Positions 4,769 through 60,403 of a stretch of 64,000 nucleotides of DNA are shown in pieces. The position numbers and the translations under genes are program-made. Where the stretch lies: assembly GCA_000004695.1 (NCBI GenBank), contig CM000151.3, positions 1,632,001-1,696,000 of the forward strand. Reading direction: 5' to 3'. How positions within the stretch are numbered: the stretch's first letter is position 1; each line of letters opens with the position of its first letter. The notes beneath the pieces were generated by a model. It was not told the origin of the DNA, searched no databases, and saw only the letters and a program-made list of their open reading frames with translations. This stretch comes from Dictyostelium discoideum. Taxonomy: Eukaryota.

Positions 4769-6963
<2,195 letters not shown>

Positions 6964-7731: not shown

Positions 7732-12500
<4,769 letters not shown>

Positions 12501-38008: not shown

Positions 38009-39382
38009 ATGGTAGAAAAAATCATTGTTTCAAATCCAGTTGCTAATCTTTTAGGTGATGAACAAACCAGGTAATTATAAGATTATAAAAAATAAAAAAA
38101 TAAAAAAATAAAAAAATAAATTTAGATTTTAAAAAATAAAATAAAAATAAAAATAAACAAATATATAAAAAAAAAAATTAATTATAACTAATATTTTTTT
38201 TTTTTTTTTTAATTTTTTTTTTTTTTTTTATTATTATTATTATTTTTCTTTTAGAGTTATTTGGGATTTAATTGAAAAGAAATTAATTTTTCCATTTTTA
38301 GATTTAAAAGTTGAAACCTATGATTTAGGAATTGAGTATCGTGATAAAACCAATGATCAAGTTACAATTGATGCAGCCAATGCAATTAAGAGATTAAAAG
38401 TTGGTATTAAATGTGCAACAATTACACCAGACGAAGCACGTGTCACAGAGTTTGGATTGAAGGAGATGTGGAAATCACCAAATGGTACCATTCGTAATAC
38501 ATTGGGTGGCACATTATTTAGAGAGCCAATTGTTTGTAAGAATGTCCCACGTTTGGTCACCTGTTGGAATAAATCTATAGTTATTGGTCGTCATGCATTT
38601 GGTGACCAATACAGAGCCACTGATTTCGTAGTAAAGGGAGCTGGCAAGTTGGAGTTAACCTACACACCAGCCGACGGCAGTGCACCACAAAAATTCCAAG
38701 TCTTTGACTTCCCATCCGATGGTGGTGTAGCCTTGGGAATGTATAATACCGACGCCTCAATCAAAGAGTTTGCCTACGCCTGCTTCAACTTTAGTTTGGA
38801 CAAAAAGTGGCCATTATATCTCTCCACAAAGAACACAATTCTCAAGAGATACGACGGCCGTTTCAAAGACATTTTCCAAGAGATCTACGAAAGAGAGTAC
38901 AAAGTTAAATTCGACACTGCCGGTATTTGGTATGAGCATAGACTCATCGACGACATGGTCGCCTATGCTATGAAGAGTGAGGGTGGCTTCGTTTGGGCTT
39001 GTAAAAACTATGACGGTGATGTTCAATCAGATGCCGTCGCCCAGGGTTATGGTAGTTTGGGTCTCATGACTTCAGTTTTACTCTCTGCCGACTCTTTAGT
39101 TGCTGAAGCCTCCCATGGTACTGTCACTAGACATTTCCGTGAACATCAAAAAGGTAGAGAAACCAGTACCAATTCAATCGCTTCTATCTTTGCTTGGACT
39201 CGTGGTCTTGAATATCGTGCTAAATTAGATAACAATGATAAATTATTAAAATTCTGTCATGCTCTTGAAGCTTCCTGTATCGATGCTGTTGAATCTGGTT
39301 TCATGACTAAAGATTTAGCAATTTGTGTTAAAGGTTCAGTTGAAAAGTAAGTTTTTTTTTTTTTTTTTATTTATTTATTTTC

Positions 39383-40252: not shown

Positions 40253-41699
40253 ATGATTTCAAATATTAGTAAAAAAATCCTTTCAAATTCATCAAAATTC
40301 ATTCAACAACAATCTTATTGTAAATATTAAAAAAAAAAAAAAAAAAAAAAAATTTCTTTGAAAAAAAAAAAAAAAGATAATTTCGGAATATAAATAAATA
40401 TTTATTTTGTTTAATAAATAAATATAAATTATATTAAAATTTTTTTTTATTTTTTTATTTTTTTTTTATTTTTTTAAAGCCACAAAAAGAATTAAAGTAA
40501 CAGGACCAGTTGTTGAAATGGATGGTGATGAACAAACTAGAATTATGTGGGAATCAATTAAATCAAAATTAATTTTCCCATATGTTGATATTACACCAGA
40601 ATATTATGATTTAGGTTTACCAAATCGTGATGCAACCAATGATCAAGTTACAATTGATGCAGCCAATGCAATTAAGAGAGCAAAGATTGGTGTTAAATGT
40701 GCAACCATCACACCGGATGAAGCACGTGTAAAAGAGTTTGGATTAAAGGAGATGTGGAAATCACCAAACGGTACCATTCGTAATATTTTGGATGGTACAG
40801 TATTCAGAGGACCAATCATTTGTAAGAATTTACCATTGTTAGTACCAGGTTGGAAGAAACCAATCATCATTGGTCGTCATGCTCATGGTGATCAATACAA
40901 AGCCACCGATTTCGTTGTTAACGGTCCAGGTAAATTAGAGATGATTTTCACACCAAGTCAAGGCGAGCCAATTAAAAAGGTGATCTATGATTTCAAAGGT
41001 TCAGGTGTTGCAATGGGTATGTATAATACAACTAGCTCAATCACTGCTTTCGCTCATAGTTGTTTCCAATACGCTATCGATAAAAAGTATCCATTATATC
41101 TCTCCACAAAGAACACAATTCTCAAGAAATACGACGGTCAATTCAAAGACATTTTCCAAGAGATCTACGAAAGAGAATACAGCACTAAATTTGGTGAATT
41201 GGGTATTTGGTATGAACATAGACTCATTGATGATATGGTTGCTTTTGCACTCAAGAGTGAGGGTGGTTTCGTTTGGGCTTGTAAAAACTATGATGGTGAT
41301 GTTCAATCAGATATCGTCGCCCAAGGTTATGGTAGTTTAGGTCTTATGACTTCAGTATTAACCAATGCTGATGGAGTTTTCGCAAGTGAAGCCTCCCATG
41401 GTACTGTCACTAGACATTTCCGTGAACATCAAAAAGGTAATGAAACTAGTACCAATTCTGTTGCTTCCATTTTCGCTTGGACAAGTGCACTTGGTCAACG
41501 TGGTAAATTAGATAACAATAAAGATCTCGTTAAATTCGCTCAAGATATGGAAAAAGCATGTGTTGAATCAATTGAATCTGGTTTCATGACTAAAGATTTA
41601 GCAATTTGTATCAAAGGAAACCAAGTTAAAAGATCAAATTACTTAAATACTGAAGAATATATTAACAAAGTTGCTGAATTTTATAATAAAATTAAATAA
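40253..41699 (+). CDS. idhM: NADP-dependent isocitrate dehydrogenase, mitochondrial type (N-terminal presequence). Model: join(40253..40319,40480..41699), about 428 aa
   Basis: Exon 1 is [22 protein letters not shown] with a GTAAAT donor (phase 1) and acceptor TTTTAAAG at 40479. The join yields ...[23 protein letters not shown]. This matches the human IDH2 mature N-terminus ([19 protein letters not shown]) preceded by a basic, hydroxylated presequence. The rest is the 393-aa ORF. Confidence 0.85.
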
Positions 41700-41974: not shown

Positions 41975-42507
41975 TTAAAATCTTGATCTTAAACGTTTTT
42001 GACCACTACCTTCATAGATATAAGTAAAAGATAATGGATTACTAAAGTTTCTACCATCATTTGTGATTACAACTTGTACTGGTAATTCTGTACCTTCAGG
42101 TGAATTGAAACCTTGAGGTATTGGATAAGGTGGTAATGTAAAGAATAAAACACTTTCACTAAACAATTCGATATTTGAAGCTGGTACATCACCATGTGGT
42201 GTATGAAAAATACATTTCAATGAATTACATCTAATAAAAGGTGAACCAACAACATGCATTTGATCACCACCCAATGTTGTACCTCGATTGGATGATAAAG
42301 TTCTCAATGTAACATTTCTTCTTCTTGATAAAACTTTTTGATTTGAATATGCATAAAATGGTCTTGATCTTTTTATAAATGGTAATGCACTACCATTAAA
42401 ACCATTAAAACCAATTGTTGATGTATTTGTTGAAGAAGATGTATTATTATTAGTAGTTGAGGTAGTGGTGGTGGTAGTAGTGGTAGTATTATTAACATTA
42501 GTTGTTG

Positions 42508-42539
<32 letters not shown>

Positions 42540-44214
42540 GTTGTTGTGTAAATTCTATTATCATCAGAAATTAAAACATATTCTAAAACAAATTCATTTT
42601 CACGATGTTTTGTTGAAGCTTCAGTCATTGATAAACTATCGAAAGCAACTTTACCATCTTTACCAATTACACCAACTTTATTACCACCTAGAATGAATTG
42701 ACTTGGACGTTCAGTTGTTGAATTTGCGTATGCCAATTGTGCTAAAACTCCACCAACTTTATTCTTTGCCAAATCACCAACAACTCTGATCACTGAATTA
42801 AAAGTTCTACGATCATTTGGTGTTCTAGTTCTAACATCTGATGGTGGTTGTTGTTCGATTATAATATCTAATTCACCAATGATTTGTAATGGTGGCTGTG
42901 TCATTGGTATAAAATTTGTACCTGTACCTGTTGTAATTGATGTTGGTGATGTTATACCAATTAATGGATTTAAATTTGATGATGATGTTGATGCTGATGC
43001 TGATGATGAAGTACTATTTGTATTATTACTACTACTACTACTATTAAATGAACCAATTGATGCTATTATATTTGGAGTTGTTGAATTAATTCCAGAATCT
43101 GTAAATGGATGATTTATAAAAATTGGTGACGTTATTGAAGTTGATGATGATGGTGTTGAGGATGTAGTTTCCATTGCTGTTGTTGATGGTGTTGATGATG
43201 TTGATGATGGTGACATTAATTCATGGAATAATGATGTATTGTTATTATTATTATTATTATTTGCATTGGATGTTTCAGGTGATGTTAAATTTGTTATATT
43301 ATGGTTTGTTGGATTATTTGAGTGTATAAAAATAGTTCTATTTCCATTTGAATTTAAAACTTGGTTCGCATTAATTTGTTGTTGTTGTTGTTGTTGTTGT
43401 TGTTGCTGCTGTTGCTGTTGCTGTAATTGATGTTGAATTTGGTGAATTGAAAAAGGTATTGTATTATTACTATTATTATTATTACTATTATTACTATTAT
43501 TATTATTATTATTATTATTATTTGGTTGTAAAATTTGTTGTTGTGCTTGTTGTTGAGCTGCTTGAATTTGTTGTTGTAATTGATTTAATTGCTGTAATTG
43601 ATGAAGTTGTTGTAATTGTTGTAAATGTTGATATGGTTGAGGAATTTGTGATAAATCGATACTATTATTATTACCATTATTATTGTTGTTACTATTGTTT
43701 GTTTGATTTTGTTGATTTTGTTGTTGTTGCTGTTGTTGTTGTTGCTGTTGTTGTTGTTGTTGTTGTTGTAATTGATGATGATGTTGTTGCTGCTGTTGTT
43801 GTAAATGATTAATTAATTGATGATGAACTGTATTCATCATCATTGATGGTGGTTGTTGGTCACATGCAATTGAATCATTTGATAATTGATTTGAACCACC
43901 AACGATACTACTACTACTACCAACACCAACACCACCTCCAACGATACCACTACCACTACCAATACTTGATGATGAATGATTACCACCAATTGAATTAGCA
44001 CCATTGGAAATTCCACTATTACCATAATAATATAATGAATTTGGATTAAATGTTGAATGACTAATTAATTGTTGAATATTCTCTGTTGCTGAATTTTGAA
44101 TATCAGTTGGTGTTGGAATTGATGATAGAATTTGTTGTGGAAACATTGATGGTAAATGAATTAATCCAACTCCATTTCCAATTCCAAATCCATTATTATT
44201 ACTATTACTATTAC

Positions 44215-44266
<52 letters not shown>

Positions 44267-44482
44267 TCCATTATTATTTGATGATGATGAAGAAGTAGTT
44301 GTAGTGGTTGTAGTGGTTGTATTATTATTATTTATATTTCCAATACTATATTTTTTAAAATCATTCTCAGTTGATTGGTTATAGTTTGATGGTGGAGATG
44401 GTGATTGTGGTTCCATCTTTACATTTAAGTTATCAATTGAATTTTGGTCAAGAAAGTTTTCAAATAACCCAGCGTCATCCAT
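41975..44482 (-). CDS. Q/N/T-rich putative nuclear transcription factor with a C-terminal IPT/TIG-like Ig-fold domain preceded by an RHD/p53-like beta-sandwich region; possibly a CudA-like family member
   Basis: The 835-aa ORF has an N-terminal poly-T/N/Q region and poly-Gln tracts (CAA/TTG repeats). A central segment is LQIIGELDIIIEQQPPSDVRTRTPNDRRTFNSVIRVVGDLAKNKVGG...FVLEYVLISDD. A C-terminal IPT/TIG-like segment follows (HVVGSPFIRCNSLKCIFHTPHGDVPASNIELFSESVLFFTLPPYPIP...VQVVITNDGRNFSNPLSFTYIY). The family assignment is inferred. Confidence 0.5.
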
Positions 44483-44503
44483 TTTTAATTTTTATTTTTA
44501 TAA

Positions 44504-44506
<3 letters not shown>

Positions 44507-44601
<95 letters not shown>

Positions 44602-44602
44602 T
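44507..44602. repeat. (ATT)n/(TTA)n pure intergenic microsatellite, about 32 units, immediately 5' of the putative transcription-factor gene start
   Basis: Seen in the sequence. Confidence 0.9.
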
Positions 44603-45875
44603 TATAAATTTTTATTTTTTTTTTTTATTTTTTATTTTTTATTTTTTTTTTTGAATTTGTTCCCTTATATTATGGAGGCTTTATTATTACCACTGCTAAA
44701 TAAAAATTAATTTTTTTATTTATATTCACTTTAATAATTGTTTTTTTTTTTTTTTCTATAGACTACAAAAAAAAAAAATAATAAATAAAAAATAAAAAAT
44801 AAAATAAAATTAAATGAAGAGATAAAATAAAATAAAATAAATAATAAATATAAATTTTTTAGGTAAAAAAAATAATGAGGGAAAAAAAAAAACTTTTGTT
44901 AGAAAAAAAAAAATAAAAATCAAAAAAAAAAAAATCAAAAAAAAAAAAAAAAAAAAATCAAAAAAAAAAAAAAATCAATACTAAAACGTCCGGACCCTGG
45001 GCCAAAACCCATCTTAAGAATTAATTCTGATATCCATAAAAATAAAATAAAAAAAAAAAAAAAAAATAATAAAATAAATAAATGATAAATATAAAGGGAA
45101 AATTTTTATTTATTTTATTTTTTTTTTTTATTTTTTTTATTTAAAATTTTAAATATGTTTAGAGTTTATTTTCATTGTATTATTTTTATTTTTATTATTA
45201 GTATTTTTTATTTTTTTTTATTTTTTTATTTTAAAAATTCCAAATGAAATTAAAATATATTTGCCTATACTAAAAATTTTAAAATTAAATTATTTAAACT
45301 ATTTCATTTATTCTAATTCCATATGTTTAATTATTTGTTATTCGAATTTTATTCGTACCTAAAGGAGAGAGAAAAAAAATAAAAAGAGAATATATTAGAT
45401 CTTTTTTAAAAGGACCAATATTATTTTACTTTGGTATAAATTATCATTTGTTAATAGATTCACAAAATTTCATTCAACCACCTAATTTTTTTATTTTTTA
45501 TTTTCTTTTTTTTTTTTATTTTAATTTTTTTTTTTCTTTTTTTTTCGTTTATTTAATACTTAGATCTGGACTACAAAAAATGTTAAATCTAAAAAGATTT
45601 TAATTTTTTTTTTTATTTTTTTTTTAACAATAATATTAAAAAATTAATTATTTTAAAATAAAAAAAATTAAAATAAAAAAAAATTAAAAATAAAAAATAA
45701 AATAAAAAAATAAAATAAAAAAAAAAAAAAAAAAACTAAATAAATCTTTGAAAATTAAAAAAATAAAAAAATAAATAAAAATAAAAATAAAAATAAAAAA
45801 TAAATAAAAAAGAGAAAAGTTTTTTGTTTTTGGGATTATAGATTTAAATTATTTAAAAAGGTCTCTTCTAAGAAG

Positions 45876-46305: not shown

Positions 46306-48345
46306 ATGAGTACCATTAATCATATAGAATCACATTTTCAAGCTTCAAATCAAATACTACATTCAAATCCAAGTACTTTAACATTTTTAGAAAATATTGA
46401 TAGGTTAGTTTCTTTTTTTTTTTTTATTTTTTTTTTATTTTTCCAAGAATTATGATTTTTAAAAAAACTAATTATTATTATTATTATTTTTTTTTATTTA
46501 TTTATTTAGATTATTAAATTTAACAAATTCAACATATAGTGGTATTCAGTATACTGGTATTAGAGGATTAAATGATTTTTCATGTACAAGTTTTAAAATG
46601 TTGGTTATTGTATTCTCAAAATTTAGATCAATGAAATCAATTTTCAAATTAGTAAATTCACCAGATGAAAAGGTTAGATCAGAGACGTTATCATTATTAT
46701 GGAATTTTTCGGCTGAAGAGAGTTTAAAAATTAAAATGTTTGAAGAAAGAATATTGAATTACATTGGCTGTTTATTCAATTACCAAGATGAGAATCTTTT
46801 ATTAAGAACTTCAGCAATAATTCAAAATCTTTGTGAATTTCGATTTGAAAAAGGTGCAATAAACCAAAACCAAATTAAAATAGTATCACAATATAAGGAT
46901 TTACTATCAACCATAATCCAAAGATCGAATCATCAAGATGTAAGAATTAAATTTCTATCTTGTAATACACTTTGTAATCTATCAATGAATGAAGAGAATA
47001 GGAAACTGTTCCAACATATGAATATATTTCAAGATGTAATTGGAGAATTCAATAAAAACTATCTCAACGACATTGAACTACCCTCATCCTTCAATTGGGT
47101 CACATTGCAACCTCTACTCGGTTTAATCAGTAGTAAAGATACTCAAGTCCAAATATTCATCCTCTACTGTGTCTTAAGTTTCTCATTATCTGAAAAATAC
47201 AATCGCCGTCTTTGGAGAGTCTTTGCCAATAATCATGGTATTGAATCTCTATTAAAATTAAAAAAATCAAAAATTCAATTAGTTTCTGAATTATCTACAA
47301 AAATTTGTACAACTTTAAAAATTGGTAAAATATCATACCTACATAGGCAATTAAATAATAATAATAATAATAGTAATAATAATACTAATATGTGATGTTT
47401 TTAATTATTTTAGAAAAACAAAAAATTGAAACATTAAAACACGATTCTAATGAATGTTTAGAAAATGATATTTCAAAATTATTTAATAATGAAAATATGT
47501 TTCCAGATTTAATAATAAAATGTAAAGATAAACCAAATTTTTATTTACATAGATCAATTTGTGTTTCAAGATGTCCAAAATTAAAAATTATACTTGATAA
47601 TCAATCGATAAATAATGATGATAGTGGTGATGGTAGAAATGGTTTAAAATCAAGTACAGGTTTTGAAAAAGAATTTTTAAATTTAAGTGGAATTGGTGAA
47701 AAAATAATTTCAAATATAAATTATGGTGATAGACAAATCGTGCAATTGGAATTGGAATTATATGAAACATTTTATGAGATTGCTAAATGGATTTATGGAA
47801 TTCATTCAAATTCGAATTTATCGTCAGAGGTGGTAGCGAAATCAGTGATGAAGATAGCATATTTTTTAGAGGTTCAAGATATAATTCAAGAATGTGAATA
47901 TTCGTTATGGCATCATATCGATTTAAATAATTGTTCAGAGATTTTAAATCTTTCATTACAGTGTAATTCAAAGCAGTTGGAGAATGTTACAGTGGAATTC
48001 ATACTCAGGAATTTAGATTCCATATATTTTGGTAATGCTAAATCTGATTTCCTAAATCATACTTTCAATCAAGATTTAAATATTAATAAACTTTGGTATT
48101 CTGGTGGTACAAATAATTGGACTAAATTAATTAAAAATCATATTATCAATTCTTATCAACTACAACAACAAAAATTTAAAATTGAAATTCATGAATTAAA
48201 TAATCAAAATAATTCTAATAAAAATAATAATAATAATAATATCAATAATAATAATAATAATTTACATTTTAATAATAATATTAATATTAATACAAATAAT
48301 ATTCAACATTATTCATCTTATAATGATTATGATTCATATAGATAA
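46306..48345 (+). CDS. Armadillo-repeat + BTB/POZ + BACK-like domain protein. Model: join(46306..46403,46510..47372,47414..48345), about 631 aa
   Basis: Exon 1 is MSTINHIESHFQASNQILHSNPSTLTFLENIDR with a GTTAGT donor. Exon 2 has ARM-like repeats (…LLWNFSAEESLKIKMFEERILNYIGCLFNYQDENLLLRTSAIIQNLCEF…VRIKFLSCNTLCNLSMNEENRKLF…). Intron 2 runs from GTAATA at 47373 to TTTTAG at 47413. Its phase-1 junction joins it in frame to the BTB domain (FPDLIIKCKDKPNFYLHRSICVSRCPKLKIIL) and BACK-like region. ORF-track pieces 46598..47395 and 47392..48345 are therefore one gene. Confidence 0.6.
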
Positions 48346-48675: not shown

Positions 48676-49234
48676 ATGTCATATAAATTCGATCCAGCAC
48701 TTTTAGAAAAAAGAATAGTTAGAGATGAAATAGATACGAGATACAGAGCTAGCGACCAACTTTTACAAAATGCAGTTAGAAAGAAACCAAATGTACTTGG
48801 TGAGAAGAAACAAACTGTAAGAAAACCAAGTAATGGTACAATTAGAAATCGAAGAGGTGGTGATGATGATGATGACGACGATGGATCACCTGTTAGAAGG
48901 ACAAAAGGTTCAACTCAAACTAAACAACAATTTGAAAAAGTATTTATTCATTTATTTATTTATCTATTTTTTTGTTTTGTAAAATTTATTTAATACTAAT
49001 TGTTTTTTTATTTTTTATTTTTATTTTTTATTTAGAAATCACAAACACCACCAAAACCAATTATAGATAAGAGTAGTTTTATTTGGAATATTCCATTAAA
49101 GAAAAAGGATGTACCAATAGATGATGAGGATGATGATGAAGAGGATATTAAAGATCGTAATAAAAAAAAGCCAATTACCACCTCTTCCTCTTCCTTCTCC
49201 TCTCCAAAACCTATATCATCAATGTCTTCATCAA

Positions 49235-49269
<35 letters not shown>

Positions 49270-50415
49270 GGTAGATCAACAACAACATCAACATCAACAT
49301 CAAACATTTCATCAGATTTATTTAAAACAAATGTAACAACAAAATCAACATCATCTAACAGCAACGGCAATAACAATAATAATAAATCAACTACATCATC
49401 AACAACAGCATCTAAATCGACAGCATCAGAATCTAAATCAACAACACAAAATAAAAAACCAGCACCAAGACCAGCACCAAAACCAGCACCAAGACCAGAA
49501 CCAAAACCAGCATTAATTCCATCAGCACCAAAAGTAGCAATAATACCATCAACTCAAGCAGTAATGAATTTTGGTAATAGTGGTAATGCATACGTTAGAA
49601 AAGTTCAACCTACTTATGGTAGATTTGCATTTAATAATTATGATTCAACATCATCATCAACATCATCACCAACTACAACAAAAAATTTATTAGGTGCACC
49701 ATTAATTTCAAAACCTTTAGAGGCACCATCAAAAAAAATACCAACCACAATAGTAACATCCACTTCAAACTCTTCATCAGTATCACAAAAGCCGACCTCT
49801 TCATCAGTATCATCCAAAACATCAGGTAAAAGAAATAGTAAATATTCTGATGATGAAAGTGATAATGATGATTATTTTGGTGATAAAGAATATAATAAAT
49901 CTAGAAAAGTAAATTCATCTTCATCACCGTATAGTGGTAGAAATAATAATAATAATAATAATAATAAAAATAATAATAGTAATAGTAATAGTAATAAAAA
50001 TAATAATAGTAATAGTAATAATAATAATAATAGAAATAGTCAACGTAGTAATAATCATAATAATAATAATAATAATAGTAGAGGTGATAGATATTCAGAT
50101 GATGAAGGAGATGATTATTATTCAGAGGAAGAAGAGGATGATGATAGTTTTATTGATGATGATGATGAAGATGAAAGAGAAGTTAAATCATTTTTATCAA
50201 AGATTAGAAAAAGTAAAAATCGTTATGTTGACGATGACGATTTCGATGATCGTAATATGTTAACAAGACATGATGATCTCCAAAGAGAGGAATCTAAATC
50301 TCTTTTCTTGGCAAGAAATGAAGATAGAAAATATGAAGAGTTGGAAAATAAAATGAAAAGAGAAAAAGAAGAAAAGAAAAGAAAGTTTTATGAGCAACAA
50401 CAAAAAAGAAAATAA
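48676..50415 (+). CDS. SPT2-like chromatin protein (S/T/N-rich low complexity with a conserved acidic SPT2 C-terminal domain). Model: join(48676..48939,49036..50415)
   Basis: Exon 1 ends ...QQFEK with a GTATTT donor and the acceptor is TTTAG at 49035, phase 0. The exon is open in frame from 49036 into the ORF-track piece 49222..50415. The C-terminus YSDDEGDDYYSEEEEDDDSFIDDDDEDEREVKSFLSKIRKSKNRYVDDDDFDDRNMLTRHDDLQREESKSLFLARNEDRKYEELEN resembles the SPT2 domain (acidic D/E block with FIDDD, then a basic/acidic segment). Confidence 0.5.

Positions 50416-60287: not shown

Positions 60288-60403
<116 letters not shown>

Follow-up and report, generated by a model that had tools for sequence, protein, structure and literature searches.

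A conserved amoebozoan protein family with a predicted Rel-like two-domain architecture in Dictyostelium discoideum

In this study, we analyzed a stretch of 64,000 nucleotides from the genome of Dictyostelium discoideum (GenBank assembly GCA_000004695.1, contig CM000151.3, positions 1,632,001 to 1,696,000 of the forward strand; hereafter the window) and focused on one single-exon, complete open reading frame (ORF) on its minus strand (41975..44482), which starts with ATG and encodes a protein of 835 amino acids followed by a stop codon. All coordinates given below are those of the window, and all features of this gene lie on the minus strand. The last ~300 residues of the protein define a conserved family whose named members are all amoebozoan, and its most likely identity is that of a dimeric, DNA-binding transcription factor built on the architecture of the Rel homology region proteins (NF-kB/Rel, NFAT and NFAT5/TonEBP). 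We regard the Rel-like character of the fold and architecture as very probable, and would assign a probability of about two-thirds to the protein being a sequence-specific DNA-binding factor, a function suggested by fold, homology and motifs. The fold, the order of the domains, the profile-level homology of the C-terminal domain and the conservation of the motifs, on which this reading is built, are described first.

The last 330 residues were modeled with AlphaFold2 using the family alignment as input, which gave a confident model (predicted local distance difference test (pLDDT) 81; predicted template modeling score (pTM) 0.72). The model consists of two all-beta sandwich domains (residues 33–134 and 198–317 of the modeled segment), which are separated by a disordered insert together with a short basic helix (QKVLSRRR). 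The N-terminal sandwich (residues 538–639 of the protein; 42566..42871) has an s-type immunoglobulin (Ig) fold like that of Rel-N, velvet and STAT proteins, and is the putative DNA-binding domain; both the Rel-N and the velvet versions of this fold were recognized in it. The C-terminal domain (residues 724–823; 42014..42313) is of the IPT/TIG type and is closest to the dimerisation domains of Rel-homology proteins. On the basis of the model and of the Foldseek alignments, the two domains are adjacent, separated by a short linker and arranged in the same N-to-C order as in Rel. The initial annotation of the window, which had suggested a Rel/velvet/STAT kind of beta-sandwich followed by an IPT/TIG-type domain in these 330 residues, was thus borne out by the model.

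When the model was searched against the PDB with Foldseek, ranks 1–42 were occupied by two-domain Rel-homology proteins, with the exception of EBF1 at ranks 32, 34 and 37, and the E-values over these ranks extended from 3e-12 (NFAT1) to 1.5e-7. NFAT1, NFAT5, RelA, RelB, p52, c-Rel and p50 were all among the matches, and the alignments (341–390 columns) covered both domains for NFAT, RelA, p52 and p50. Structure-search scores were 12.9 for p65/c-Rel bound to DNA, 12.8 for the velvet domain of VosA (114 residues, 2.4 A), 12.7 for the p65 dimerisation domain, 12.5 for p52, 11.9 for NFAT1 RHR-C, 11.8 for NFAT5, 11.3 for VeA and 10.9 for VelB; the IPT domains of Met and plexin, STAT6, the IPT domain of EBF and the TIG domain of CAMTA scored 10.3–10.7. 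For the N-terminal domain alone, the scores were 8.3 (p52), 8.2 (VosA and STAT6), 7.7 (NFAT5), 7.5 (the p65/c-Rel chimera and Dictyostelium STATa), 7.3–7.4 (two entries of p65), 7.2 (VelB and VeA), 6.7 (p53), 6.6 (Runx1) and 6.4 (RBPJ). A non-DNA-binding Ig-like fold, such as that of extracellular or sugar-binding IPT proteins, had been named at the outset as the outcome that would speak against a transcription factor; the closest structures are instead those of DNA-binding transcription factors.

The relationship of the C-terminal domain to Rel was also visible at the level of sequence profiles. A hidden Markov model (HMM) of the family, searched against all PDB sequences, gave 16 matches, every one of them to the dimerisation domain of RelB, NFAT5 or p65 (best E-value 0.0035). 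With hhalign, the family matched human p65 (sequence verified against 1nfi_A) with a probability of 74% (E-value 2.9e-5), the C-terminal domain matched a profile of 27 Rel sequences with 94.7% (E-value 6e-8), and the full core matched the same profile with 89%, in an alignment that reached back beyond the linker to include the strand that closes the N-terminal domain. Segments such as LGGDQM and VLFFTLPPYP in the family were aligned with LGGDEI and AIVFRTPPYA in p65. Thus, the HMM and hhalign matches indicate that this domain is specifically closest to the Rel dimerisation domains, and by profile comparison it is probably homologous to the Rel dimerisation/IPT domain. Pfam models gave a sparser picture: among the 54 aligned members, TIG (PF01833) was found in 17 at E<=1 (best E-value 3.2e-5; the D. 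discoideum protein itself had no match) and RHD_dimer (PF16179) in 6 (best E-value 3.6e-4). Pfam searches with the full protein and with each domain yielded nothing meaningful, the lone match being a sub-threshold one to DUF2606 (E-value 0.015), and phmmer with the C-terminal 330 residues against PDB sequences returned only a spurious proline-rich match to Prp8. That Pfam detected no other domain in the protein is consistent with the proposed architecture.

Conserved motifs point to the surfaces that may contact DNA. The most prominent is a nearly invariant loop, QQPPSDVRTRTPNDRRTF (42800..42853; family consensus QPPvEVRTRTpxEkRtF), a candidate DNA-recognition loop in which P41, P42, V45, R46, T47, R48, T49, E52, R54 and F56 are nearly invariant (this numbering is not that of the full-length protein). 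Within it, R-T-R-T-x-x-[E/D]-x-R is invariant and lies directly after strand 1 in the AlphaFold2 model, and its R-x-R-x-x-x-E-x-R spacing is that of RFRYKCEGR in p65, a sequence that was verified and that is numbered R33-F-R35-Y-K-C-E39-G-R41. The loop occupies the same sequence region as the basic motif of both Rel and velvet and may be equivalent to the p65 recognition loop. A second segment, LSMTEASTKHRENEF (42590..42634), contains the invariant residues S623, H626 and F631 and was placed by hhalign opposite the velvet motif F-x-DLSV...Y-R-L-x-F, in an alignment that was not significant. The closing strand and the basic linker helix, PFYAYSNQKVLSRRRN (42314..42361), carry invariant F, A, S, V, L, R and R residues, and the basic residues that are invariant or nearly so are concentrated in two places, the loop that follows strand 1 and this linker. 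Finally, the protein ends with KRLRSRF-COOH (41978..41998), an ending that is shared across the family: 41 of 65 full-length members terminate in R-[SA]-R-[FMILV]-COOH or R-S-Y-L-COOH, including three (P0095, P0098 and P0101) that retain the motif despite an acidic extension of ~150 amino acids after the IPT domain.

The distribution of the family was examined with a query in which the two conserved blocks were spliced together, and 53 homologs were found. Identity to the query was 94% in D. purpureum, ~80% in other dictyostelids and 32–59% in many others. When 1.84 billion cluster representatives were searched with the family profile, 249 proteins were retrieved at E<=1e-3, including 74 at E<=1e-30. 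Dictyostelid members came from Dictyostelium, Polysphondylium, Acytostelium and Synstelium, and other amoebozoan members from Ceratiomyxa, Phalansterium, Soliformovum, Pellita and Vannella, so that named members span Dictyostelia, Variosea and Discosea; a more distant clade (P0047–P0053) lies on contigs that carry eukaryotic genes. Because the core is conserved, at 37–59% identity, in homologs outside the dictyostelids, including those of Variosea, Discosea, Ceratiomyxa and environmental eukaryotes, the protein is not specific to the Dictyostelium lineage as had initially been proposed. Invariant or nearly invariant motifs of the alignment are QPPvEVRTRTpxEkRtF, ILGG, FdxLSmsEASTKHxExEFcLeF, PFYAYSxxKVLxRR, GGxxMHVxGxPF, SESVLFFxxP and TNDGRxFSN. 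Where source annotations were present, members were described as 'hypothetical' or 'uncharacterized', and no paper describing this family was found in our literature search. A protein of 431 amino acids (P0189) matched the family profile weakly (E-value 9e-12); it has a diverged N-terminal domain together with an above-threshold Pfam TIG match (36.8 bits), and may bridge the family to other IPT-containing factors. It should also be noted that PF28397 ('DG1062_N') was listed for 3 of the 53 homologs (P0022, P0031 and P0036), among which the D. purpureum ortholog is not included, and that the match was graded 'weak' for P0022 and P0031, the two that were looked up. A distant relationship is therefore possible between the family and the N-terminal domain of DG1062, a D. 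discoideum developmental gene.

Compared with known systems, the family most closely follows the Rel homology region proteins, with which it shares an s-type Ig domain, a short linker and an IPT domain of the dimerisation type, profile-level homology of the C-terminal domain (LGGDx and F-x-x-PPY are common to the family and p65) and a basic loop of the same spacing after strand 1. On the other hand, there are clear differences from Rel. The N-terminal domain is shorter (~115 residues plus the closing strand, versus ~170), the folded region forms the C-terminal rather than the N-terminal part of the protein, there is no ankyrin/IkB-type region, and the family occurs in Amoebozoa. By sequence definitions, it falls outside both the RHD and the velvet families, yet it has the Rel architecture and, as far as profiles can tell, a Rel-homologous C-terminal domain.

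Several observations weigh against a DNA-binding Rel-type factor. The N-terminal domain showed no detectable sequence similarity to its Rel counterpart: the hhalign comparison with the Rel profile was not significant (0.4%), and Pfam RHD_DNA_bind (PF00554) matched none of the 54 aligned members at E<=1. The comparison with a VeA-type velvet profile was likewise not significant (2.7%), and Pfam Velvet (PF11754) also matched none of the 54. The Tyr and Cys of the Rel recognition loop (RFRYxCEG) are absent from the family loop, as is the Gly, and the basic C-terminal KRLR cluster is not kept throughout the family. Some giant proteins retrieved by the profile search matched only positions 235–335 of the profile, many times each, and were read as containing IPT repeats; IPT domains are known in non-nuclear proteins too. 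In addition, DNA binding itself is an inference. The last point also favors a reading in which the protein is an Ig/IPT scaffold that does not bind DNA, for example a cytosolic adaptor or trafficking factor similar to BCAP DBB or the Sec5 IPT, whose likeness to transcription factors reflects nothing but a common beta-sandwich fold, and the S-x-Phi-COOH terminus, which resembles a PDZ ligand, fits such a role as well. We consider this quite improbable, given that the best matches in three independent structure searches were all DNA-binding transcription factors, that Rel and NFAT5 are the sole sequence-level relatives among solved structures, that Arg residues in the loop after strand 1 are invariant, and that the Q-rich and acidic features of the N-terminal part are typical of activators.

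The structural similarity to velvet proteins raises a different possibility, namely a velvet-type regulator to which an IPT domain was added, rather than a Rel-type protein; its N-terminal domain would be a true but highly diverged velvet homolog and might, as in VosA/VelB, serve in DNA binding or dimerisation. The score against VosA rose from 8.2 to 12.8 once the closing strand and helix (PFYAYS..KVL) were included, and the hhalign register was sensible, with ILGG..F-D-x-LSM..EFcLeF opposite vLTG..FIFPDLSV..YRLxF and SRPFYAYSNQKV opposite SNPFIVYSAKKF. The family also resembles VosA, VelB and VeA in local motifs (QQP...R...R after strand 1, F-x-x-LS[VM] and S-x-PF-x-x-S-x-K). However, no sequence or profile similarity to velvet was significant, since hhalign gave only 1.4% against VeA in addition to the 2.7% and the absence of Pfam Velvet matches mentioned above, and p52 (8.3) was about equal to VosA (8.2) when the N-terminal domain was searched alone. 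Moreover, an IPT domain is missing from velvet proteins, in which the velvet domain itself mediates dimerisation. Velvet is treated as essentially fungal, and a survey that looked for it beyond the fungi reported Capsaspora and a few others, with no Amoebozoa (PMC10845976). On balance, velvet ancestry of this kind appears unlikely.

STAT proteins, EBF/COE and CSL, which also combine or contain related folds, agree less well with the data. Structure scores of EBF/COE and CSL were below those of Rel and NFAT; Pfam detected no HLH dimerisation helices, the sequence contains no COE-type zinc-knuckle Cys/His cluster, and the AlphaFold2 model shows no CSL-type beta-trefoil domain. A place within, or as a distant branch of, the Dictyostelium CudA/STAT-like DNA-binding group, as raised in the initial annotation, was weighed too, CudA being reportedly similar to the STAT DNA-binding domain. 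We consider this very improbable. Unlike STAT, the family has no coiled-coil, linker or SH2 domain (neither SH2 nor coiled-coil was detected by Pfam), and the beta-sandwich is followed by a Rel-type IPT domain, not by a STAT linker domain. An ORF next to the gene clusters with DDB_G0272114 of D. discoideum and close relatives, and among the Cud genes that could be identified, namely cudA, spaA (DDB_G0287317), 270306, 286351 and 275333, none has an identifier numerically close to this one.

For a dimeric transcription factor of Rel architecture, a working mechanism can be proposed. In this mechanism, the protein would act in the nucleus and would form dimers through its IPT domain in the manner of NF-kB and NFAT5. 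The R-T-R-T-x-x-[E/D]-x-R loop, the S-T-K-H segment and the basic linker KVLSRRR would contact DNA, whereas the Q/N-rich half of the protein and its conserved acidic-hydrophobic N-terminus may supply contacts for activation or with co-factors. The R-S-R-Phi C-terminus is a candidate regulatory site, for example for phospho-dependent or PDZ/14-3-3-type control of localisation; it fits both the class I PDZ ligand and the 14-3-3 mode III consensus.

The N-terminal half is very different in character from the folded core. Residues 1–505 contain 21% N, 16% Q and 16% S and just 0.8% K+R, with homopolymer runs of T9, N17, Q6, Q17, N9, Q16 and N8, which agrees with the initial description of ~500 prion-like residues with poly-Q, poly-N and poly-T; such Q/N-rich tracts are ordinary for the Dictyostelium genome. 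By composition and runs, the Q/N/S/T-rich region as a whole covers residues 15–530 (42893..44440), and its C-terminal end is predicted to be disordered (pLDDT was low for residues 506–533). Outside the core, conservation among dictyostelid orthologs extends to the start motif MDDxxLFxNFxD and to two short islands, which comparison with P0066, P0065 and P0002 placed within the low-complexity region at 44027–44158 (HLPSMFPQQILSSIPTPTDIQNSATENIQQLISHSTFNPNSLYY) and 43820–43864 (CDQQPPSMMMNTVHH). The extreme N-terminus forms an acidic and hydrophobic motif, MDDAGLFENFLDQN (44441..44482), which is kept in the Polysphondylium violaceum ortholog and may serve in activation; acidic N-termini with F/W/L recur in many family members. 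Inspection of the sequence by eye made both a signal peptide and a transmembrane segment appear unlikely, because the N-terminus is acidic and no long hydrophobic stretch is present. A further disordered segment, a species-specific N/T-rich insertion of 55 residues (646–700; 42383..42547; pLDDT <50), breaks into the N-terminal domain shortly ahead of the closing strand. Because it is missing in the D. purpureum and P. violaceum orthologs, it is a recent expansion of a coding repeat within a folded domain.

With regard to the gene itself, the ORF boundaries, length and strand given in the initial annotation were exact, and the peptide quoted there, HVVGSPFIRCNSLKCIFHTPHGDVPASNIELFSESVLFFTLPPYPIP, was found in the translated ORF. 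In-frame stop codons lie directly 5' of the ATG, and the P. violaceum ortholog (P0066) begins with the same MDDxxLFxNFxD motif, both of which support the proposed start codon. The exact 835-residue protein was not found in a collection of 15 billion proteins, and no D. discoideum entry with 100% identity was present among the 53 homologs, so that its gene model, strain or species differs from those in public records. The 5' flank contains a pure TTA microsatellite, as had been noted, although it comprises 31 units (93 bp; 44507..44599), not 32 units and 96 bp, and lies 25 bp upstream of the ATG; TRF called 39.7 imperfect copies at 44488–44605. The idea that this repeat is a special, gene-specific feature was rejected. 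The window (GC content 22.5%) contains 20 pure trinucleotide runs, this one included, that are 10 or more units long, and 8 of them have at least 28 units (for example, (TAT)38 at 6165–6278, (CAA)38 at 10403–10516 and (AAT)37 at 60292–60402). Since comparable runs recur in the window, the microsatellite and the homopolymer tracts are best regarded as genome background.

Several other genes were identified around this locus. Two tandem ORFs of isocitrate dehydrogenase (38457–39347 and 40518–41696, both on the plus strand; Pfam Iso_dh E-values 6e-50 and 4e-60, respectively) resemble 3' exons of spliced genes, and the second is convergent with the 3' end of the gene studied here, at a gap of ~275 bp. 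Upstream, on the opposite strand, adjacent ORFs with ARM/HEAT repeats and a BTB domain (46598–48342, plus strand) are probably a single gene, and the divergent promoter region may be common to it and the gene studied here. An ORF for an SPT2 chromatin protein follows at 49222–50412 (plus strand).

A survey of dictyostelid transcription factors did not find RHR/RHD, CSL/LAG1, COE/EBF, CG-1/CAMTA or Runt factors in Dictyostelia (PMC6873476), and according to a 2026 paper, Rel-homology factors arose in the opisthokont ancestor (PMC13366479). We tentatively suggest, at clearly less than even odds, that the amoebozoan family and the Rel homology region are true sisters of ancient origin, that the common ancestor of Amoebozoa and Opisthokonta possessed an ancestral form in which a velvet/Rel-N-like DNA-binding domain was joined to a Rel-type IPT domain, and that animal NF-kB/NFAT and fungal velvet proteins, the latter after loss of the IPT domain, descend from it. 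If this is true, the origin of Rel-type factors would shift below the opisthokont node, and Dictyostelium would gain a tractable 'proto-NF-kB'. Should the protein not bind DNA, it would remain a member of a conserved amoebozoan family with a striking C-terminal motif. With DNA binding as predicted, our analysis adds a previously unrecognized transcription-factor family to the Dictyostelium repertoire, one that offers an intermediate form between velvet and Rel and allows the origin of NF-kB-type regulators to be tested in an organism amenable to genetics.

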